Shown here: positions 1 to 64,000 of the stretch, piece by piece
Numbering within the stretch: the stretch's first letter is position 1
Layout of the letters: each line of letters opens with the position of its first letter
NCBI GenBank assembly: GCA_039096225.1
Contig: JBBPEB010000013.1
Location: forward strand, 806,001-870,000
Direction: 5' to 3'
From: Blastocystis sp. Blastoise
Lineage: Eukaryota; Protista; Bigyra: Opalinata
Length of the DNA stretch: 64,000 bases
Program-made: the position numbers and the translations under genes
The notes under the pieces: model-generated
What the model saw: only the letters and a program-made list of their open reading frames with translations
Told to the model about the DNA's origin: nothing
Database searches by the model: none

Positions 1-1621
1 AGAATCAAATGGAGGTAAATATACTAATATGCCTACTATTCAATATACTTCACATTTTAATCCTAATAGTGGTGTTTCTACATTAGAATTTTATGATTTT
101 GATGTTGCACATAGAGAAGCAGAAAGAAATTATCAAATGTTAAATAGAGAACAAAAAGAAATATTTGATAGAATTATGGTATCTGTTAATAATACTCAAC
201 CTCATAATAATAATATGTTCTTTATTGATGGTCCTGGTGGAACTGGAAAAACATTCTTATATAATACTTTGATCAAGATGATTCGTACAAGAGAAAAACC
301 TGTATTAGCTGTTGCATTCACAGGAATAGCAGCTACTTTATTATCAGGAGGAAGTACTTCTCATTCTGTATTTGGATTACCACTTGATCTAAATGAAATG
401 TCTATTTCACATATAACAAGAAGTAGTGCAAAAGCAAATGATTTAAGAAAATGTGCTATTATTATTTGGGATGAAGCACCTATGGCTTCTATTTATGCTT
501 TAGAAGTTCTTGATAATTTATTACATGATTTATTTAGTTCAATAGATTCTGAAGATCCATGTCTTCAATATCCTTTTGTTGGTAAAACTATTGTTTTAGG
601 TGGAGATTTTAGACAATGTTTACCAGTAGTTAAAAATGGAAATGAATCATCTACTGTTGGTGTATGTTTGAAAAGATTTAAATATTGGAATAATTTTATA
701 CAATGTCATTTAGTTCAGAATATGAGAGCAGATAGAGATGCTTTAGATTTTAAAGAATGGTTAATGAAAGTAGGAAATGGTGAACGATTAAATAATGAAT
801 CTGATTTGAATGATAATATTGTAGAAATACCTTCACAATGTATAAGTACAGAAAATTTATATAAAGAGATATGGGAGAATATACTTCATAATAGAAATAT
901 TTTATCAGAACAACATAGAAAAGATTTATCTGAGAATTGTATTTTATGTTGTACGAATGAAGATACTTTTGATATAAATGAGAAAGTATTAGATTTAATA
1001 CCTTCTTCAGAATCAGAAAAAATATATTATAGTTTTGATACTTTAGAAGATGAAATAGTTAATGATTCTGAAAGAGCTGCTTATTCTCCTGAATTTCTTA
1101 ATACTCTTCTTCCTCAAGGATTTCCTCCTCATAAATTAAGATTAAGAAAAGGCTGTATTATTATGTTATTGAGAAATCTTAATATAAAGAAGGGTTTATG
1201 TAATGGAACAAGATTAGTTGTTCTTGAAACATTAAATAATGTTATTCGTGCTCAATTATTAAATAAGCCAGATAATTTATTACCTGGTGAAGATATTGTA
1301 TTTATTCCAAGAATCAGTTTAATTACTTCAGATGATTCACTTCCTACTAAGATGAGAAGAAAACAATTTCCTGTTCGATTAGCTTTTGCTATGACTATTA
1401 ATAAATCACAAGGTCAAACATTTAAAAATGTTGGATTATATTTAAAGAGACCTGTATTTAGTCATGGTCAATTATATGTTGCTTTTAGTAGAGTTCGTTC
1501 TTTTAATGGTTTACATATTTATGCTGAAAATTGTAATAACAATAATCAAGGACATCTTAGTAAAGACTATCCTAATAAGGTATTTACGACTAATTGCATT
1601 TTTGATGGAGTTTTAAATTAG
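1..1621 (+). CDS. Helitron RepHel protein, C-terminal Pif1/SF1B helicase domain (5'-truncated by window edge)
   Basis: Motifs DGPGGTGKT, IIWDEAPM, GGDFRQCLPV, LCNGTRL, QFPVRLAFAMTINKSQGQT, HGQLYVAFSRV. Differs from the C-terminus of the 46094-50911 ORF at 3 of 530 aa. Confidence 0.95.
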   Translation, partial: ESNGGKYTNMPTIQYTSHFNPNSGVSTLEFYDFDVAHREAERNYQMLNREQKEIFDRIMVSVNNTQPHNNNMFFIDGPGGTGKTFLYNTLIKMIRTREKPVLAVAFTGIAATLLSGGSTSHSVFGLPLDLNEMSISHITRSSAKANDLRKCAIIIWDEAPMASIYALEVLDNLLHDLFSSIDSEDPCLQYPFVGKTIVLGGDFRQCLPVVKNGNESSTVGVCLKRFKYWNNFIQCHLVQNMRADRDALDFKEWLMKVGNGERLNNESDLNDNIVEIPSQCISTENLYKEIWENILHNRNILSEQHRKDLSENCILCCTNEDTFDINEKVLDLIPSSESEKIYYSFDTLEDEIVNDSERAAYSPEFLNTLLPQGFPPHKLRLRKGCIIMLLRNLNIKKGLCNGTRLVVLETLNNVIRAQLLNKPDNLLPGEDIVFIPRISLITSDDSLPTKMRRKQFPVRLAFAMTINKSQGQTFKNVGLYLKRPVFSHGQLYVAFSRVRSFNGLHIYAENCNNNNQGHLSKDYPNKVFTTNCIFDGVLN

Positions 1622-13590: not shown

Positions 13591-13674
13591 GCCAGTTTGT
13601 CCGAGTGGTCCAAGGAGGGGGACTTAAGATCCCTTATGCGAACGCATGCGTGGGTTCAAACCCCACAGCTGGCA
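13591..13674 (+). tRNA. tRNA-Leu(TAA)
   Basis: Acceptor GCCAGTT/AGCTGGC+A, D-loop CCGAGTGGTCCAAGG, anticodon loop CT-TAA-GA, long variable arm ATGCG-AA-CGCAT, T-arm GTGGG-TTCAAAC-CCCAC, downstream T-run terminator. Confidence 0.95.
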
Positions 13675-21749: not shown

Positions 21750-24301
21750 TTAATCTGTTTTATAGGTACCTTGTAAATCAAGCATACACTTTTCAGAATC
21801 GCAGAATGAGATTTCAGAAGGATACATATTAAGTTCTGTACCATTATTTTTATGTTCTTCAATACCAGATCCGAAAGATTTTTTACTATTAGAAGATTTT
21901 AATTTATTAGAACGTATTTGGAATGGATTTAATTTCTTTTCATTATTATTAAGAACTGATTCTACAGCTATAGACATAGCTTTAGGAGAAGAAGGAGTAG
22001 TAAGAGTTTCTTCTTCTTCAGTCCAAGAAATAGGTAAAAGATTTTTACTCATTTCAATATATTGTTCTTCTGTAATTTCTTGATAAGGAATTTGTGGATA
22101 ACAAGATAAATCACATTTAGGTAAACACGAAATACCTTTTAATTGATATTGGAAATAATCTAAACATTTTTCAACCATATTTGATTCTGTTTTAGGATCA
22201 AATGTGACAGTACAACTAACTTGATTATCAGCCCAATATTTCTGTAAGAAAGCAGCTAAAGAGAATTGTTCAAAAATCGATACTTCATCAATAACACGAA
22301 CATTTTTACCCGCACAAACAGGGAATTCTACAACAACTAATTGATTTTCTTGTCCAACAGCAGGTTCTATATGATATCCGGCATGTTCTAAAGCAGGTAA
22401 CATATCACTATCTTTAGGGAAACGTACACGACGTATATAAAAACGACCTAATGGATAATGCATACCAGGAGTAGCACCAGCTAATAAAGATACAGTACCT
22501 GAAGGTTTAATAGAAGTAGTTTTAATAGATCGAGGTACACATAACCATTCACTATATACATCATCCCAATGTTGAACTGTATTATATCCTTCATCCATCC
22601 ATTCACGTAAATCTTCTAAACTATGTTCAGATAAGAATTGAGCTACACCAGAAACAGAACAACCTATTCTACGATTTCTTAACATAACTCTATTAGTTTC
22701 AGGCCAATGAGTCATTCCTAAAGTAACTGTCTTTGCATATAAATAAGCAAATTTCAAAGTACGTTTATATTCTTGTAAAGAATTATGTCTAGCAGGAAAT
22801 GTTTCGACTAAACAACATAATTCATAAGATTCTAAAGATTGTTCTAAACATGGATTTCCACCTTTAACTCTATATATATATATATATGTTAGAAACATGT
22901 AGTATTATATTTTATAAAGATAAAAAATATAATATTGTGAACATTCTAATAATATAGCATTACTCAAGCTCTAATACAACTTATAATGAAGTAGATAGGG
23001 TAGTTATGTAATGCATTAGTAAATATTATTTATAATCATAGCATATTAATATATATATATATATGTATTATATATATATACCTTTTATCTTTATAATCTT
23101 TAGGATCAGCCATTCTACCATAAGCTCTCATATTCTCTAACCAACATAAACCAGGTTCACCATTTATACATATACGACTAGCTATTTGATGATAATTCAT
23201 ACCTAAACGAGCAAAAATACTATTATTAGAAGTCCAGCCATAGGAAGAACGATGAGGATTTATCTCATAATTCTATATATATGTTATTATAGTATATATT
23301 TTTAATTTAATTGTTATTAAAAAAAAAAGAGAGAGAGAAAAAAAAACACTTTATATAACTACCTTTAAATCTAAGAAAGCATCATCATTTTCTTCTCCAA
23401 AAGCGATTTCAGCACAACGAATATTACCAACCCCAATAACACATTTACCAATATAATTAAATAAATCAACAATTAAAGTAGAAGATAACTTTTTACCAAT
23501 CTATATAAATTGAATACATAAATAATACATATACTTAATAGAATAATAAATAAATATATATACATCTTGTGTTAATAATTTTACTATTTGTTCATGAAGA
23601 TCAATAAGTGGTTTTGGACCTGAAGATTTACCGCCATATGTCTTTAAATCTTCACCAGCAGTACGAATATGTGAATAATCAAAAGTAATTCCAGGAAGAC
23701 GTTGTCCATTTTCACCAAAATAAGATAAAATCAGATCACCAACTGATTTAACCCATCCTTCACGGCTATCTTCAATTTCATATACAACACGTTCTAAAGA
23801 AGGATCAGGACCAACAATAGTTACTTTATTTGCTCCTTTAGTATCAAAACCAACACCTACACCCAGCATAGTAGCATCCATTAAGAACTCAAATGGCTTT
23901 GATAAATCAACATCAATATTCTCTGTAGACACAAAAGCACAATTATTTAAAGCAGCAGCTAAATTCTTTTGATGAATAATAGGTGTTCCCATACAATATA
24001 AACCACGACCAGGAGGAAGAAACTTCATATTAAAGATCATATCGTACATTTCTTCAGCACTTCGTTCACCTTGTTCATCATTCCAACCTAAATGATATTG
24101 CTCAATGTGATTTTTCTGAATAGAATAGGTGCCTTCAACAACACGACGAACAGTTTCAAACCAATCTTCTTTGTGTCCATTGATGGTTCTAGAATAAGTT
24201 CTTCTATAAATAGTTTCACCTAATCCATTAAATCCGAAAGGAGCTTTCTTATGTCTATATTGCTCAACAAAATCATCATTCAAACTAAACGAATATTCCA
24301 T
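21750..24301 (-). CDS. nrdJ: Class II (adenosylcobalamin-dependent) monomeric ribonucleoside-triphosphate reductase, 4 exons
   Basis: PPGRGL, ALNNCAF, GVGVGFD, TSNNS, GEPG, NPCLEQSLESYELCCLVE, IKPSGTVSLLAG, WADNQVSCT and C-terminal redox pair FCDSEKC; three GT-AG introns. Confidence 0.93.
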
Positions 24302-25392
24302 TTTTCCTATAGACTACTTAGTATGTATATAGACCAGAGATATACTATTATTTCGAAAAAAGATGATTTTTCAATTTCTTCAAATATAATAAAAAATAAC
24401 TTATCAATCTGTTGTTCATTCTATTTTCCCAGACAAAAATTCCCGCTTCTTTTCGAGTCGGTGGGTTTTTTGTGGAAGTCTTTCGGGTTTCTAACCAATC
24501 ATTTCGTTCCAGAAAGTTCTCAAAACTTCTTCATTTGGAAAGGTCTTTATTATGCCTCCAAAATATTTTAAAATTACCCACCAAACAATAGAATTGGATC
24601 TTTTTCAGATTTTTTCAGACACTTTTTCTTTTTTTGGTGGTGGTTTGACTATATTATGTATCTTTTCTTATGAAAAACATATTCAGAGATCTATGTGGGA
24701 TAGGATAATGCATGGAGTGAATTAAGAGGTGATTCGTAGCGATTTAAAATAATTTGTGGAATTATTTGGAAATAAAAATCTCTATTACTATCTTATAAAT
24801 TAGTTTCTAAAAGTATACATTAATCAAACAAATAACAATGATACTCAAAGACTAATTAAAGTAATTTATTTTGAATTGTATGAAAAAATACAAAGAAAAT
24901 CATATTATGTTGTATTATTTGTTTTACTTAGACTCTTGTAGAGTACTGTAAGTTAGTATATGAGATTATGAATTTCAGAACATCATTTTTTCCAACTAGT
25001 TTGTTTTTCAAGTTATATTTGTGTTGTATATACTTATTATTGGTCAATTTTTTCTAGAACAAGTTAATAGAAATGATAGTTGAGATATCGGGATTCTATG
25101 TATATGCATATATTATATGCTTTTTAAAAATATATATAGAACAACTTTTTGGTTGAAAGATTATATATGCAAATAATAAAAGCTATATATATTATTATTT
25201 CAACTAAAGTCAAATATATAAAAAAAAATAGAATGAGAAACTGATTTCAAGAAAAAAAAGATATAAATTGAATGAATTGATAATAAAAAAAATCAGAAAA
25301 ATGGAAAATAATCAGGAGAATGTATTTAGGATCTACACTATTATAAAAAGAAGAAATGAATAATGAGTTGATTACTTTATAGTAAGGATAAT

Positions 25393-46093: not shown

Positions 46094-56417
<10,324 letters not shown>

Positions 56418-57853
56418 GATAGATTATTAATATATATGTTTTTCTTTGACAGAAGATATTATTTATAAGATAATAGTTCTTATATTCTTGTTAATAATAA
56501 ATAATAGAGTGAAAAAATCTTTTTCCCCATGTTTTTGTTTTAGTAGATGACCTTCAAAAAACAAACTTTCAGCTGGAAGATCAATTTTTAAAATGTCTTT
56601 TCTTAAATAATTATTTAAAAAGAATATATCTATCTTATAAATCTAACACTGGTTTGATTCATGAAGTCAACAGAAGCAAATATAAAGGCATAGTAGTAGA
56701 AATTATGAACAAAATCCGCCAATTTGTTTGTATCATATCAAATAACTTTATAGCTTCAAATGGAAGCATGTAGTGTGTGTAAATCATGATTGTGATGAAG
56801 TCTAAATTTAGTTATAATTACTAAAACCGTATTTAGTCAGATTTTGAAAAGTATTGCTTTTTTAAAGTATACATATTTAGAATAGCATTATATTTACTCT
56901 TATTTTCTATTTGAATCGCTTTATCTATAGTAGATAAATAAAAACACGTAAATGAGTAAAGAATTGTCAGTATCATAAAATAAAAAGGACTTCCTACGTC
57001 ATAGTAATCGTTTACAGCCATTGTAGTTTACTAAACTGAACAAACATGATGTTGACACATGTTATAGAATGCATTCTTATTTTTAAGACTGACTCAAACA
57101 TGGTCATTGATATTAAATATGCTATAAAGTACTGCTGGTAATAGTTTGTTATTCACTTATGATTCCCATATATGGAATCACTTTTAATAAATAATAAATT
57201 GTAAAAATATATATATATTTGGGGTATCTATAATATTAGATAAGCAAAACAATTTATGTAATAAACGCTATAACTACAGCCTAGTAGTTTTAATCTTTAT
57301 TAATCAAAAGTATACACATTTTGACACATTGGTAAAAATACAACCACGTTTATTTCCAATAATATTTTGACTAATAACAGTATTAAACACTCTAATAATT
57401 AATTTTACAAACAGTGAATTGAATCTCTTGTTTTAAGGCACGTAAACACACAATTCAAAACTGTTTTAACCTTAAAATTTGATATTTAGACGTAATATTT
57501 ACACATTAGACTATATGTATCCGTCAAGACATATTTGACTACTTTTTAACAACTTTAGAGTCAACATGTCCAGTTTGTCATTCACTCCTCAACTCCACTT
57601 TTGACTATTTTTTTAAGAAATGCAATACATATAAGGTCTATTTTTCAAAAATGTAAAAATTAATTGTCAAATATGAATTTGATTTGTCAACTTTCGGAAA
57701 ATTTTTAGAAAAATGATTTTTCAATTTTCAGTTTTTTAACATGTTATACTATTGACTCTATTGAACTCATTTTTTTATTAATTTCAAATATTAAAAATAA
57801 TATAATTAATATATTTTATTCTCTATATATATTTGCTAAAATTATATTAAATA

Positions 57854-58820
57854 ATTAAATATTGACTGAGAAATTAATGTTATAAAGTATACCCTTTTTC
57901 CAAAAATTAATTTTTTTATGTTTTGCATATATAATTTTTTTTCTCAAAAGTTATTTTATATTTTGATAATATTTTTATAAATATATAAACTATATGTTAT
58001 CTAGTTTATAGATAAGTTTTATTTATTTATTAAAAATTGATATTGATGGAGAAATTGTCAAAATAAACTATAGTATCCAAAATGCTTCCTTCTTTTTAAA
58101 CGACTTATTTCACTAATTAAAGACAATTAAAAACTTATTTATTTATTTAAAGCATATTTATGACATTTGCAACTCATAATGACTCATAACTAACTTTTTA
58201 GAACAAACATTGTCTGTATCAGTTCAACATGTTGTCTTAAAATTTTCAAATAAGTGATATATAGTATCCATGAGTGGTTCTAAACACATATTAAAACGTT
58301 TTAAGAGTTTATTGAGTTAACATTGTCTGGTGATCTGTTGTTAAAGTCTTTTAAAAACAAAATAAAATTATAAAATATGTTTATTTTGGTATGTTGTTAT
58401 TAAATATAAAGTCAAATGTCAAATAAAATTGTTAATGATGAAAAAATTAACAAAAAACAAATAAAGAATTTTTAAGAAAAATTTCGAACGTCATTTTTTA
58501 TTGAGTTCAACTATTGTCTCCTGTGACTTCATTTTTTATATTTTTAAAAAAATGACAAAAACGCATCATGTTTTGGTTGTCTTATATCTAAATATGTTTT
58601 AACTTTATTATTTTATTAAATATTGACTGAGAAATTACAATCACAAAATATACCCTTTTTAGAAAATTTTCATTTTTATGTTTTTAATATAAACTTAGAT
58701 ATTTTAGTCAATATTGAATATTAAATAAAAATATTAAAAATGCATCATTTTTATGTTATCTAGTTTCTAAATATGTTTTTACTTTTTGTATATGTTGAAT
58801 ATTGAAAGAGATCTGGTGGT
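57854..58820. repeat. Degenerate ~200-bp direct repeats in the Helitron 5' non-coding region
   Basis: ATTAAATATTGACTGAGAAATTA at 57854 and 58615; TATACCCTTTTT in both copies; TATGTTATCTAGTTT at ~57993 and ~58752 (offset ~760 bp). Confidence 0.75.
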
Positions 58821-60486
58821 CACAAAATTGGGTGTCAAACACAAAAATTTTTATAAACAAATTTTTCTCTTTTAAAAGATATTATAAAAATATAAAACAT
58901 ATTTATGACGGATACGGAGTTAGATAAATACAAAACAGTTCAATTAAGTTTATTTAAAAGGAATGTGTTGGATATCAGTTTGTCTTTTGTCGTTATTTAA
59001 AGGAATTATTGTTGTTTCAGAGTAGTTAAAGTCATTATCATGACAAATGAAACCAATTTAGAGTTTATAGTTAGTGATGTGTGTATTGATATGTTGTCAA
59101 GTTCTAAATATAAACAAATCTACCCGTCAAAACTATTTATAAGACCAACCCGTCAATAAAAGTCAATTTTATAAAAATAAATATAGAGTATGTTAATAGA
59201 TATAGGAAAAATAAGAAAACAATAAAAAATGAAAATGGAAAAATAAGTGTTTTTCTAAAAATGAAAAATATTGGATAAAATAAAAATAATCCAATAATCT
59301 TGGTTAAAATTTTGTGCGAAAATGGTTTTTTGCGAATTTTAGCCAGAAATTTAGAGTTTTCGAAAAATTTCTTTAACAGTCATTTTTAGAATTGTGTTCC
59401 GGATGTTTTGATGTTATTTTTATTTTATAAAAGTTAATAACAAAGTCAATAATACGAAAAATGTGTGAGACACCGTACTTTTGGGCTGCTAAATTAAGGA
59501 TATTAATTCTACTGATTTCAGTAAATCATCACAAATTTCATTGTTTTTATTCGTTAATTATTAGCTTCAATATATTTATATATACAAATATTTTTAGTCT
59601 TATTCATATCAACTTGAGTTCAGTGACTTTCGATACAAAAATGCTTTGTTTCCTATTGATATATAGAAATTTATTTTTCACTAGATCTTATTAACGTATA
59701 TAAATAAAGCTCACTTAAAGATTTATGCATTTAAATCACAAAAAAAAAGATATATAACTGAAAAAAAGAAAATTATGCAGCCTAAACAGTAGTTGATTGC
59801 TCTAGCAAGTGTGGTTGTATAGATTGCATCTGATATTATAAATATTATACTTGTTGAATATAGAAAAATATAATGAGAGTTAAAATCAATTATTATGTTC
59901 CTGTTATAATATATTATTCGTATATATTACCGCTAGACATTACAATTTATTTATAGCACTTTTATATTCATTATGATACGTTAATTAGATTAATATACAA
60001 CATTTTGAAAAGAATCAGGTCTTTTCTAACCTTTCTAAGTGTTATAAATATATATAAATATGAAATAAAGTTTTTCATGTCATTAGCAATATATATCAAT
60101 TAATACTTATGGTTTTTATCACAAATAGAGTAATCAAGTCACAAATTGTTTAACTAAAAACAGTATAATATTTGAGATATGGCATTTTTTAAATTATATA
60201 GTACCAATAAAAGCTTGTGACAGTCAGTTATACTATTTCTACATTAATTATAAAACAGTTTAAAAAAAGAGTTTTAAAAATGCTATATTTTTTATCAAAT
60301 AAATTCATACTGTATATGCAGACCAGAATAATAATGTGAAATTTAAATAATGATAAAATACAGCAACAAAATATCAACTTTGATCATTTATAATATAATT
60401 TAATCCACCATATAAATTCTATAACTCTTCGAGTTCATTTTATAAACAGTGTATTTAGTTTTATATTCATTAATTAAGAAAAATAA

Positions 60487-60962: not shown

Positions 60963-61088
60963 TATTAATTCTTCCGTTCTTCGAACTGCAGAAGGGGGTA
61001 TGCAAACCCCGCATAGAGTCTGCGCGACGCGCGCAGCCATAAGCGGGGAAGACATCCCCCCTTTTTGTTCTCGACGGAAGAATTAATA
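60963..61088. repeat. GC-rich 126-nt imperfect rod hairpin
   Basis: TATTAATTCTTCCGT/ACGGAAGAATTAATA (15 bp perfect), G-run/C-run, CCCCGC/GCGGGG, CTGCGCG-acg-CGCGCAG. Confidence 0.9.
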
Positions 61089-61687
61089 ACATTTCTGAAG
61101 TAAAATAACCATGGGAGTGTAGGGTAGTGTGTGTGTGTATTTATTTTTTCCCATGTTTATTTATTTTTAATTTATTTGTGTTCCGATTCCAACGTGAAAC
61201 GTAAAGTGATCAAGGAGAAACTCATAGTAATAATAAAAGAAATAAAATACACAGTCCAACCCTCCCCTTTACAGGGAATATTCATAGGAAATGGCTCCAT
61301 CGTTGGTAAAGTGAGTAAAATAATCACGGGAATACAGAAAGAAATACGAAAAGAAGCACAGAATGTGCTAAATAAACACACACCCCGACCCTCCCTTTAT
61401 ATAGAGAAAAGATGAAATGGATGGTTCTATCTAAAAAGAAATAATAAAAATAATCACGGGAATATATAAAAATAAAAATGTATGTATAGTGATCAATAAA
61501 TAATATAAAAAGTCATGATAATCATAAAAAAATTATATAAAAAGAGTAAAGTGATCAAGGTATGTATTTATAGTGGGTGAAAGAAACGCTGGTGGTGGTG
61601 TGGTCTTGTAAAAAGATGTACCCACCACCACGATTATAACGAGAGACTTTTGGAAACATGAGCGACCGATATGGAAAAATATAAATT

Positions 61688-61735
61688 TTCGAGAACATTC
61701 TAGAACATTCTCGAAACTTCTAGAACATTCGAGAA
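61688..61735 (+). promoter_or_regulatory. Heat-shock element array (10 contiguous alternating nTTCn/nGAAn units) upstream of the recombinase
   Basis: TTCgaGAAcaTTCtaGAAcaTTCtcGAAacTTCtaGAAcaTTCgaGAA, ending 88 nt before ATG 61824. Confidence 0.8.
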
Positions 61736-61823
61736 CATGAGAATCTTAGATATTTTATTTTGATTTTCTTATGTATTATTCTTTTGAAAATAGAAGTTTT
61801 AAAGATTCTACTTGAGAAAATCA

Positions 61824-62759
61824 ATGAAAAATACAAATTATGACAAGTATCTTTTGGTTATACAGAATTCAAATTATTCTGATATTTGGAAAAAACGTTT
61901 AACCAATTATTTCAATTTATATATTTTCCCATTACCATTTAAAAAGTTCTCAGAATTCTTAAAGAATCCTTATTCATTCATGGATTATATGGTAAATGAA
62001 CGTAAAATCAAAATTAGTCCAATGAAATCGTTATGTGAATTGATTTTATTTATTATACGTAATGTTTCTTCATTAAATAAAGAAGGTATTTTAAATAAAT
62101 GGTGTGAATTTTATGTGATTATCAATTCAATGTATGAAAAATATCTGGATAATAAGAAACGTACTTTAATTCAAGATCTTATTAAAGATGGTATTACGAC
62201 TCCATATTTACATGAATATCACGATAAATTAGAAAATTATAATCCATTACGATTAATATTAGATTTTTACTCCTATCTTCCTCCTGCTCGTGCTGATTAT
62301 GCTCAATTATTCATTCTATCACCAGAAGATACTATTGATCCAACTATTCATAAGAATTATATTGTTTATGATAAAGAGAAACACACTGGTTCTATTCTAT
62401 TAAATGATTATAAAACTGCTGGTAAATACTCTACAATTCAATTAGATGCACCAAAAGAATTGATTGAAGATCTAGAATTACTCTTAAAAAGAAATCCAAA
62501 TCGTAAATTTATATTTGAATCTTCTGTAAGAACTGGATTTACTACTAAAGCATTTGATTGGTTTGTGAATAAGCATTTAAAACAAATCCATCCAAAATTA
62601 ACCATTAATGCATTAAGAAAATTATATGCTACAACTACAACCAATACATTCCAAGATATAGAAAATTCTGCTTCTGCTTTATGTCATAATGATTATACAC
62701 ATATTAATTCTTATGTATCTTTAGAAAATAATAATTTATTTAAAAAATTAATTGAATAA
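61824..62759 (+). CDS. Tyrosine recombinase/integrase, Polinton-like-virus type (311 aa from first ATG)
   Basis: Catalytic set in order: R (LPPARADY), K (LNDYKTAGKY), NxxR in place of HxxR (TINALRKLYAT), H (ALCHN), Y (THINSYV). Intronless. Confidence 0.85.
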   Translation: MKNTNYDKYLLVIQNSNYSDIWKKRLTNYFNLYIFPLPFKKFSEFLKNPYSFMDYMVNERKIKISPMKSLCELILFIIRNVSSLNKEGILNKWCEFYVIINSMYEKYLDNKKRTLIQDLIKDGITTPYLHEYHDKLENYNPLRLILDFYSYLPPARADYAQLFILSPEDTIDPTIHKNYIVYDKEKHTGSILLNDYKTAGKYSTIQLDAPKELIEDLELLLKRNPNRKFIFESSVRTGFTTKAFDWFVNKHLKQIHPKLTINALRKLYATTTTNTFQDIENSASALCHNDYTHINSYVSLENNNLFKKLIE

Positions 62760-62832
62760 TTTTATGTTTTCATGTTTGTTTTGCTTTAATTTTGAATATA
62801 ACTAAACAACTAGTAATAAAAGGATATAAAAA

Positions 62833-63207
62833 TTAATTAAAAGGTAAGAAAGATAGATTATTATTATTATTTTGATATTGATTTTGTTGTTGATTACTTT
62901 TCATAGTTGGCATAAACATATTATTGGGTTGAATAAGATTCTTATCATCTTGATATTGATTCTCATTCTTCATATATTGTTTATCCAATAGCATTTCAAG
63001 ACGTTGATGAATCACAGGATCATCTATATAAAGTAGCATATTTCTACAATAACTCAATTGCAAATCACTAAGATTTTTGTTGTTATTGTTATTTAAAAAT
63101 TGTTCTAATAGATTTGCTATTTCATTCTTTTTGGACTTAATTCCTTCTTCTTTTAGATTCTTCATCACACGACAAAAATAAGAATAACTAAGATATTTCT
63201 TGTTCAT
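62833..63207 (-). CDS. Hypothetical viral protein, 124 aa
   Basis: Intronless ORF with helical N-terminus and N/Q-rich tail, convergent with the recombinase and preceded by a conserved promoter module. Confidence 0.6.
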   Translation of the reverse strand: MNKKYLSYSYFCRVMKNLKEEGIKSKKNEIANLLEQFLNNNNNKNLSDLQLSYCRNMLLYIDDPVIHQRLEMLLDKQYMKNENQYQDDKNLIQPNNMFMPTMKSNQQQNQYQNNNNNLSFLPFN

Positions 63208-63227
63208 TATTTAAATTAACCAATGAT

Positions 63228-63325
63228 TAAACAAAACAAATTAATTATATAAAACACTAATATAATAAATTAAAGATTCTACAAATAGAGCCAGTTCAAA
63301 ATGAATGTTCTAGAATGTTCTAGAA
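63228..63325 (-). promoter_or_regulatory. Intergenic module copy A: 5-unit HSE (63303-63325) plus 54-bp repeat (63228-63281)
   Basis: GAAtgTTCtaGAAtgTTCtaGAA; the 54-bp block is 52/54 identical to 63481-63534. Confidence 0.7.
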
Positions 63326-63465
63326 CGTTTCTTGGACATATAAAAGTAAAGTAAAATATATATAATAATAAGAACAATTTCAATAACTGACAATATTTCA
63401 TTTACATTCTCTAAAGTTTCTGCACTACGATCTAAGTAGTAATTGCCAAATCGTTTCTTTGTCAT
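63310..63465 (-). CDS. Small single-TM viral protein, 51 aa
   Basis: MTKKRFGNYYLDRS...ILSVIEIVLIIIYILLYFYM-SKKRSRTF: hydrophobic helix followed by a basic tail, sitting between the two repeated modules. Confidence 0.5.
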   Translation of the reverse strand: MTKKRFGNYYLDRSAETLENVNEILSVIEIVLIIIYILLYFYMSKKRSRTF

Positions 63466-63480
63466 TATAGTATTAAATAA

Positions 63481-63547
63481 TAAACAAAACAAATTAATTA
63501 TATAAAATATTAATATAATAAATTAAAGATTCTAGAATATTCTAGAA
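63481..63547 (-). promoter_or_regulatory. Intergenic module copy B: 4-unit HSE (63530-63547) plus 54-bp repeat (63481-63534)
   Basis: TTCtaGAAtaTTCtaGAA abutting the repeat block. Confidence 0.7.
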
Positions 63548-63551
63548 TGTT

Positions 63552-64000
63552 TTAACAAGGCATAAGATTTCCATTAGAAAGTAAATAAAGTAAAGAATAA
63601 TAAAAGCAACCATTTGCATTACTTGTAGTTTTTTGGTGTTGAATAGGATTATATTGAATATTATGATTTTGAATAAATGATTTTGAAAAAGTAGGTTCAT
63701 TTCCTAATGATGAATAGTGTTCTATGTTTTTATTACCATTATAAATAACAGCTTCAAAATGACCATTATAAGGATCACTAGGACTTTCATGAAAGATCAT
63801 ATTAAATTTAGTTTGATCTTGATCTATATTTTGTTCAAAATCATCATAACTATTATAATAATTATAAGATTGAGAATTCGTTTTATTTAATTGTTTCATA
63901 ACATTTTCAGCACGATCACAAGCAACAGAAGAGGTAGGTTTATTTAAATAAGCATAATTATATAATTGAGATATTAAAGAATTGGGTATATTACAATATT
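63552..64000 (-). CDS. Adenain/Ulp1-like cysteine protease (Polinton PRO-type), 5'-truncated by window edge
   Basis: NGHFEAV...IEHYSSLG...QYNPIQHQ...ANGCFYYSLLYL resembles the GHW-x-A...E-x-FDSxG...Q...CGxY pattern. The frame stays open from 63899 to the window end. Confidence 0.6.
   Translation of the reverse strand, partial: YCNIPNSLISQLYNYAYLNKPTSSVACDRAENVMKQLNKTNSQSYNYYNSYDDFEQNIDQDQTKFNMIFHESPSDPYNGHFEAVIYNGNKNIEHYSSLGNEPTFSKSFIQNHNIQYNPIQHQKTTSNANGCFYYSLLYLLSNGNLMPC

Follow-up and report, generated by a model that had tools for sequence, protein, structure and literature searches.

Heat-shock element (HSE) arrays stand before every visible start codon of a multi-copy, probably virus-derived element in Blastocystis sp. 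Blastoise. The element occupies the end of the DNA analysed here, a stretch of 64,000 nt from a tortoise-clade Blastocystis (contig JBBPEB010000013.1), called the window throughout, and is visible for 2.3 kb only, up to the window end. On balance we think that these arrays probably recruit the host heat-shock factor (HSF), and that stress would co-induce the element's tyrosine recombinase and two small open reading frames (ORFs). The window has a GC content of 22% overall and of 15-30% all along its length.

Arrays were searched for across the whole 64 kb with a script for alternately inverted nGAAn units in strict 5-nt phase. Five arrays of at least three units were found in the window, and the three with at least four units all lie within 61687-63548, the last 2.4 kb (Table 1). 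The remaining 61.6 kb, which form the host part, contained only two three-unit matches, at 24506 and 54802. Chance expectation was estimated from 200 second-order Markov simulations of the window, which gave means of 1.82 arrays of at least three units and 0.04 of at least four units (maximum 1); chance thus accounts for the two host matches but not for the three long arrays. A sequence-only reading of this DNA had placed five perfect units at 63303-63325, some 95 nt before the ATG at 63207, and four units at 63530-63547, some 65 nt before the ATG at 63465. Both were recovered, with the limits and distances given in Table 1. The same reading had noticed no comparable array at the host genes, in agreement with the chance-level matches of the 61.6 kb. 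No chaperone gene was found among the scanned host ORFs of the window, so the absence of arrays at these ORFs says little about specificity.

The arrays are closely packed against the neighbouring genes. The TAG stop codon of ORF51 (63310-63312) falls within the five-unit array, the overlap with a preceding ORF that had been described from the sequence, and the TAA stop codon of the truncated ORF (63552-63554) is 3 nt from the four-unit array. Directly 3' of the ten-unit array, at 61740-61747 on the plus strand, the word AGAATCTT was present as previously claimed, and it can be read as the array carried on in degenerate form (GAAtcTT). A longer form of this word, AGAATCTTTAA, was found in inverted orientation nearer to the recombinase ATG (Table 1). 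AGAATCTTTAA occurs three times in the window, each time in the element region.

Base preferences within the units were then compared. With all units oriented as nGAAn, the GAA core was kept in 19 of 19, giving 57 core bases without any change. Position 1 was A in 15 of the 19 units (AGAA, p=4e-4 against base composition), the HSF consensus being AGAAn, and position 5 was free (T in nine, C in seven, A in two and G in one). If the arrays were neutral 10-bp minisatellites of an AT-rich genome rich in low-complexity sequence, resembling HSEs by appearance, slippage of a unit such as TTCTAGAACA would yield a perfect array, and tortoise-clade genomes do consist of 11.8-12.7% low-complexity sequence according to the available part of the genome paper (PMC12129017). 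The internal copies of the ten-unit array vary, however, at the n positions only (TTCgaGAA, TTCtaGAA, TTCtcGAA) and never in the core bases. The GAAnnTTC spacers also differ among the three arrays (ca/ac, tg and ta) while the cores are the same, and all three arrays are in promoter position on one element, with none in the other 61.6 kb. A minisatellite origin is in our judgement extremely unlikely, and the pattern fits constraint on the bases contacted by HSF. With at least three contiguous alternating units in each, an invariant core with the AGAAn preference and a promoter-proximal position, the three arrays were confirmed, as far as sequence can tell, as canonical HSE arrays, one at promoter position ahead of each of the three visible start codons. 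A literature search for a Blastocystis HSF found nothing.

An HSF-family protein could also bind the arrays as constitutive or otherwise regulated upstream activating sequences, with no heat or stress switch involved. This explanation draws on the same array sequences, without the link to temperature, and in stramenopiles, diatoms for example, the HSF families are large and their roles extend past the heat-shock response. Against it, strongly inducible heat-shock promoters classically take the form of perfect, contiguous arrays with 4-10 units, and the long arrays of the element resemble them. The genome's authors included the recombinase gene in their annotation, made with a pipeline that used RNA-seq evidence, as the accessible text describes (PMC12129017), and this would be compatible with expression in ordinary culture. 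Constitutive or otherwise regulated use of the arrays is, all in all, unlikely.

Another source of repeated promoter signals would be a helper giant virus, whose machinery would read the TCTAGA-rich arrays of a virophage-like element activated by co-infection. TCTA is the late-promoter motif of CroV and mavirus, and six of the nine TTCnnGAA junctions are TTCTAGAA, which contains TCTA. The recombinase family, moreover, is found on giant-virus contigs and in Preplasmiviricota-labelled clusters. TCTA is nevertheless not kept in the arrays, since three of the nine junctions are TTCGAGAA or TTCTCGAA, whereas GAA/TTC is kept in every unit at strict 5-nt phase. In viral loci that carry related recombinases, 157 kb in all, no array reached four units, and the literature searches turned up no report of a giant virus of Blastocystis. 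The one study found to have tested for a link saw, in the portion available, no flux of genes between Blastocystis and egoviruses (bioRxiv 10.1101/2024.03.23.586382). We regard this helper-dependent explanation as very unlikely.

Equally, palindromic 10-bp repeats that adjoin a tyrosine-recombinase gene might not be promoters at all and might serve the element's own machinery, as sites of recombinase binding or crossover or as replication iterons. Recombinase core sites are inverted repeats flanking a short spacer. Yet three arrays without orientation in a single element would invite internal deletions and inversions, and the numbers of units (10, 5 and 4) vary, unlike those of defined core sites. 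Each array is also placed a short, fixed distance before an ATG, in two cases with a TATA-bearing block in between. Such a role is hardly credible here, and HSF-dependent promoters remain the reading that we follow below.

Two of the three promoters share a duplicated cassette. In the repeat search, 63228-63284 matched 63481-63537 over 57 nt at 95% identity; the 54-bp block described earlier, with 52 of 54 positions identical, was thus found again in a slightly longer form. Alignment of the three upstream regions revealed that the duplication takes in the array too and that the ORF124 copy carries an insertion of 21 nt. In gene orientation the duplicated block starts with (T)AGAATCTT and finishes with TTTGTTTTGTTTA, and the whole cassette runs in the order array, TAGAATCTTTAA, an AT-rich stretch, TATATAA, TTAATT, TGTTTTGTTTA, a short leader and the ATG. 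The recombinase promoter shares with this cassette only the array and the AGAATCTT word, and TATATAA is accordingly present between array and ATG in two of the three promoters. Because TATATAA is 39-44 nt before each of the two ATGs, the duplicated block is better read as a core promoter first, rather than as a transcript end. The first four codons of the two genes are also alike (MNKK in ORF124, MTKK in ORF51), so the duplication probably took in the start codon. The sequence-only reading had proposed a reusable cassette that ends the upstream transcript and co-induces the next gene. Its HSE arrays in promoter position and its reused block held, and its idea of a GT-rich terminating motif gained from the four element ORFs described next; the view of the block as primarily a transcript end gave way to that of a core promoter.

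The GT-rich end of the duplicated block belongs to a motif, TGTTT(N)GTT, that recurs at the 3' ends of the element's genes. It was found within 100 nt 3' of the stop codon in all four element ORFs, starting at nt 14 after the stop of the recombinase, nt 25 for ORF124, nt 72 for ORF51 and nt 61 for the truncated ORF, as against none of 15 host ORFs (of at least 120 amino acids); the background is 0.114 per kb per strand. The recombinase and ORF124 genes are convergent, and the motif at their 3' ends therefore cannot belong to a promoter. For ST7 of Blastocystis, ~96% of 2,419 genes are reported to have TGTTTGTT or a close variant of it exactly 4 nt past the poly(A) site (PMC4159000, available in part). 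The element resembles this arrangement in having the exact TGTTTGTT after the recombinase stop and close variants after the other three ORFs, and differs from it in that two of its motif copies lie 3' of a TATA box and ahead of the following ATG. The match to the ST7 downstream element, together with the motifs at the convergent genes, supports the proposal that the motif ends the upstream transcript. Taken alone, a 3'-end role for the motif is possible on this sequence evidence, and falls a little short of probable.

The gene behind the ten-unit array encodes a protein of 311 amino acids that is 99% identical to hypothetical proteins of Blastocystis sp. Blastoise in NCBI. A profile search collected 860 relatives. 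In an alignment of 65 sequences R156, K197 and R265 were invariant and H288 nearly so, Y297 was invariant among the five closest relatives, and the position of the first catalytic His holds N262; the catalytic R-K-H-R-H/W-Y set was accordingly counted as present. The AlphaFold model built from the 65-sequence alignment reached a predicted local distance difference test (pLDDT) score of 95.1, compared with 58 when three sequences were used. Foldseek placed this model closest to Cre (E 5.5e-4, template-modelling (TM) score 0.51), XerA, lambda Int and Tn1549 Int, and the model has the predicted two-domain recombinase fold. A PDB profile search also returned an integrase (E 1.9e-4). The gathering score of PF00589 was missed (13.1 bits against a cut-off of 27.1), and only two of 26 relatives matched this family, weakly and both under the cut-off. 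By its conserved residues and modelled fold the protein is a tyrosine recombinase, of a divergent family outside the Pfam model. A relative of 95-99% identity was found in the contigs of run X1, which cover only parts of the recombinase gene, ORF124 and the truncated ORF. All 11 of the listed differences were synonymous, five of them in the recombinase gene and six in ORF124.

Several lines of evidence point to a mobile element. The 90% identity cluster of the recombinase contains ten distinct 311-amino-acid sequences, from 16 NCBI accessions and the window's own protein, and the gene is present in 19 places on several Mb-scale contigs of the genome. Two more distant paralogue groups occur in the same Blastocystis genome, at 40% identity (three copies) and 30% identity (one copy), which suggests several families of such elements. 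The nearest foreign cluster is ~40% identical. Relatives of the recombinase in this cluster and relatives of the protease-like truncated ORF share four identical longest-contig sizes (16256, 20785, 23715 and 23956), and seven contigs bearing such relatives measure between 23.68 and 24.13 kb. The shared contig sizes indicate that the recombinase and the protease-like gene travel together on a ~24-kb unit, found again and again across many assemblies.

The clusters nearest to the recombinase in the ESM Atlas are labelled 'Viruses 100%, commonest Preplasmiviricota', and a more distant subfamily is found on IMG/VR giant-virus contigs beside Rpb2, PCNA, eIF4E and PhoH. No close DNA relatives were confirmed in viral contigs, and none were found in metagenome contigs, where the search included a 24-nt cassette pattern, or in genome contigs. 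The plasmid collection, searched in distant mode, gave no match, and neither did PHROGs for the window proteins. A DIRS-like retroelement, with reverse transcriptase and inverted long terminal repeats, or a Crypton, with a lone recombinase gene, was also considered but not adopted as the main reading: there is no reverse-transcriptase ORF in 56-64 kb, and the recombinase of the relatives is linked to a protease-like gene on ~24-kb contigs, which suits neither family. Taken together, the copies, the ~24-kb linkage, the Atlas labels and the relatives on giant-virus contigs make a multi-copy, virus-derived, integrating element likely. The label 'viral' given to these genes on first inspection has indirect support from the Preplasmiviricota-labelled clusters, the giant-virus contig relatives and a candidate Peptidase_C5-type neighbour; no capsid gene lies in the window.

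A working model of the element's expression can be put together from these features. HSF trimers would bind the arrays, and TATATAA would set transcription to start ~25-32 nt downstream, just past the GT-rich motif, so that leaders would be very short. For the gene before it, TGTTT(N)GTT would serve as the poly(A) downstream element. Within ~90 bp, each cassette would in that case terminate one transcript and initiate another, with the poly(A) site of the upstream gene and the next transcription start only a few nt apart on either side of the motif. Host stress would co-induce the element genes, the recombinase among them, and induction of the recombinase would favour excision, reintegration or mobilisation of the element. 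In this respect the element would be the eukaryotic analogue of a prophage induced by stress. A wider picture, in which ~24-kb integrating virus-like genomes are common in metagenomes and those of the tortoise lineage are wired gene by gene to the heat-shock response through a ~90-bp stop-and-start cassette, is tentative and, to our minds, rather doubtful.

Several observations weigh against this model or parts of it. The recombinase promoter has no TATATAA-bearing block and only AGAATCTT words in common with the other two. TATATAA occurs 295 times in the window, and at 22% GC a TATA box called from the sequence is weak evidence. For the GT-rich motif, the relaxed form TGTTT(N)GTT was chosen after the data had been seen, two of its four matches are duplicates of each other, and the host ORFs used as controls are possibly exons rather than true gene ends. 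The element also lies in the tortoise clade, in which, unlike in human subtypes, the TGTTTGTT-type element is reported in the available text not to be enriched after host genes (PMC12129017). No capsid or packaging gene is present in the visible 2.3 kb, and the truncated ORF had no match in Pfam or in PDB searches with hidden Markov models. Finally, 13 viral loci (157 kb) with distant relatives of the recombinase contained one three-unit array and none of at least four units, so the arrays are a trait of this element and not of the recombinase family.

Table 1 Features of the element at the end of the window, in order of position
Feature	Position	Strand	Details
HSE array, 10 perfect alternating nTTCn/nGAAn units	61687-61736	.	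Ends 87 nt before recombinase ATG 61824
Inverted copy of AGAATCTTTAA (longer form of AGAATCTT)	61799-61809	-	15 nt before recombinase ATG
Tyrosine recombinase gene, 311 amino acids	61824-62759	+	R156, K197, N262, R265, H288, Y297
Exact TGTTTGTT, candidate poly(A) downstream element	62773-62780	+	Starts 14 nt after recombinase stop
TGTTTAGTT, variant of GT-rich motif	62800-62808	-	Starts 25 nt after ORF124 stop
ORF124, 124 amino acids	62833-63207	-	6/6 differences synonymous in X1 contigs
Cassette copy 1	63228-63284	-	TAGAATCTTTAA..., TATATAA 63245-63251 (44 nt before ATG), TTTGTTTTGTTTA 63228-63240
HSE array, 5 perfect units	63302-63326	.	Ends 94 nt before ORF124 ATG 63207
ORF51, 51 amino acids, one hydrophobic segment	63310-63465	-	Putative coding
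Cassette copy 2	63481-63537	-	TATATAA 63498-63504 (39 nt before ATG 63465), TTTGTTTTGTTTA 63481-63493
HSE array, 4 perfect units	63529-63548	.	Ends 63 nt before ORF51 ATG 63465
Truncated ORF, 148 codons, 3' part of ~190-amino-acid ORF	63552-64000	-	Cut by window end

Among the neighbouring ORFs, no homologue, Pfam family or PHROG was found for ORF124. Since all its differences in the X1 contigs are synonymous, it is, by this sequence comparison, a real gene under purifying selection. The truncated ORF has relatives of 177-190 amino acids at ~60% identity and contains the motifs GHFEA, IEHYSSLG and QHQ...NANGC. In the ESM Atlas it scores 0.96 and shares 213 of 256 features with viral clusters, in which 13-62% of the members carry Peptidase_C5 (PF00770). 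Its H/E/Q/C-like motifs are conserved in four sequences, and we take them to be possible equivalents of the His, Glu, Gln and Cys of adenain-type enzymes. The truncated ORF is thus a candidate adenain-type cysteine protease, offered as a lead.

Left of the recombinase promoter are two GC-rich hairpins, at 60995-61060 and 61587-61632, with DNA fold z-scores of -4.0 and -3.9, respectively. The second has the arms GGTGGTGG and CCACCACC and ends 55 nt before the ten-unit array. Neither hairpin has a match in Rfam; they could mark an element end or attachment site. Between them, at 61240-61475, a direct repeat of ~130 nt is present in two copies (CCCTCCC..., ...AAATAATCACGGGAATA), and AGTGATCAA words recur at ~61207, 61488 and 61549. 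These repeats and words could be protein-binding sites of the element.

The host side of the window includes ORFs for a Helitron, a Sof1/WD40 protein, an AMP-binding enzyme and a class II ribonucleotide reductase. The 1602-amino-acid ORF at 46094-50902 (minus strand) combines Helitron_like_N and PIF1 helicase domains and looks like a full Helitron transposase, and a second PIF1-type ORF of 539 amino acids with the same domain set, at 2-1621 (plus strand), is open at the window start. ORFs at 21750-24301 (minus strand) have RNR_Alpha and B12-dependent (class II) ribonucleotide reductase insertion domains, a class unusual in a eukaryote; the three-unit GAA/TTC match at 24506-24520 is 205 nt upstream of the first of them. 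A long (AT)n microsatellite occupies 55478-55650 inside a stretch of 15% GC, and a tandem duplication of ~750 bp (repeat families D5 and D10) lies at ~57824-58910. ARAGORN and Rfam detected a single RNA gene in the window, a tRNA-Leu with anticodon TAA, at 13591-13674 (plus strand). For tortoise-derived Blastocystis genomes in general, the part of the genome paper at hand gives a GC content of 21-23%, long intergenic regions and 5.6-7.5% transposable elements (PMC12129017).

In cellular heat-shock promoters, HSF trimers bind nGAAn units that adjoin one another in inverted orientation, close to a TATA box. The element's promoters resemble them in the alternation of GAA and TTC, the 5-nt phase, the AGAAn preference, the 4-10 units less than 100 nt from the start codon and, in two of three cases, a TATATAA between array and ATG. 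Unlike those of cellular genes, the arrays are predicted HSF sites that precede mobile virus-like genes and not chaperones, and one of them overlaps the stop codon of an upstream ORF.

Mobile elements that respond to heat are known from other organisms. DIRS-1 of Dictyostelium, a retroelement with a tyrosine recombinase, produces a heat-shock-inducible transcript (PMC3950715, whose available text cites Rosen 1983 and Zuker 1983). Like DIRS-1, the Blastocystis element is repeated in the genome of an AT-rich protist and combines a tyrosine recombinase with stress-responsive signals, here predicted ones. DIRS-1 is, however, a retrotransposon with inverted long terminal repeats (LTRs), and the Blastocystis element has no visible reverse transcriptase; its recombinase family groups with virus-labelled clusters, with relatives on ~24-kb contigs that carry a protease-like gene. 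In Arabidopsis, ONSEN/COPIA78 has heat-responsive elements in its LTR that are used through HSFA2, going by the accessible parts of two papers (PMC3907296, PMC5059998). The Blastocystis element is predicted to borrow the host heat-stress response in the same manner. Unlike ONSEN, an LTR retrotransposon with one LTR promoter, it is a DNA element with separate cassettes before individual genes.

Among virus-like elements, those closest in organisation are polinton-like viruses, virophages and Mavericks, which the element resembles in its multi-copy integration, ~24-kb relatives, integrase, candidate adenain-type protease and Preplasmiviricota-labelled neighbours. Viruses of this type have genomes of ~15-40 kb, a double jelly-roll capsid protein and a packaging ATPase; in the part of the element inside the window neither a capsid nor an ATPase gene is visible. 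Blastocystis hominis datasets have been noted to contain MELD-virus sequences, in which PolB accompanies an integrase of retrovirus type (PMC8502044, in the excerpt available); the present element differs from these in carrying a tyrosine recombinase. A literature search for HSE promoters in virophages or polintons found no relevant paper.

Stress-responsive mobile elements are thus already known, and what is new here is probably an HSE-wired, recombinase-bearing DNA element, itself probably viral, in Blastocystis. In the available text of the genome paper no such element is described: repeats appear only as 5.6-7.5% transposable elements, and the word 'viral' occurs once, in the title of a reference (PMC12129017). 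If the model is true, temperature or proteotoxic stress would be the induction switch of the element, as the SOS response is for prophages, and the element would retain a TGTTTGTT-type 3'-end signal in a lineage reportedly not enriched for it. Reactivation of integrated virus-like elements of protists is usually tied to infection by a helper virus, and host stress would then be a second route to it, in the most common eukaryote of vertebrate guts. A compact promoter of ~90 bp, possibly inducible, would also be a useful transfection tool, if it works, for an organism in which only one working promoter is reported in the accessible part of the transfection study (PMC6395660). The GT-rich motif, in turn, bears on whether the unusual poly(A) signal of Blastocystis predates the split between the tortoise and human clades.

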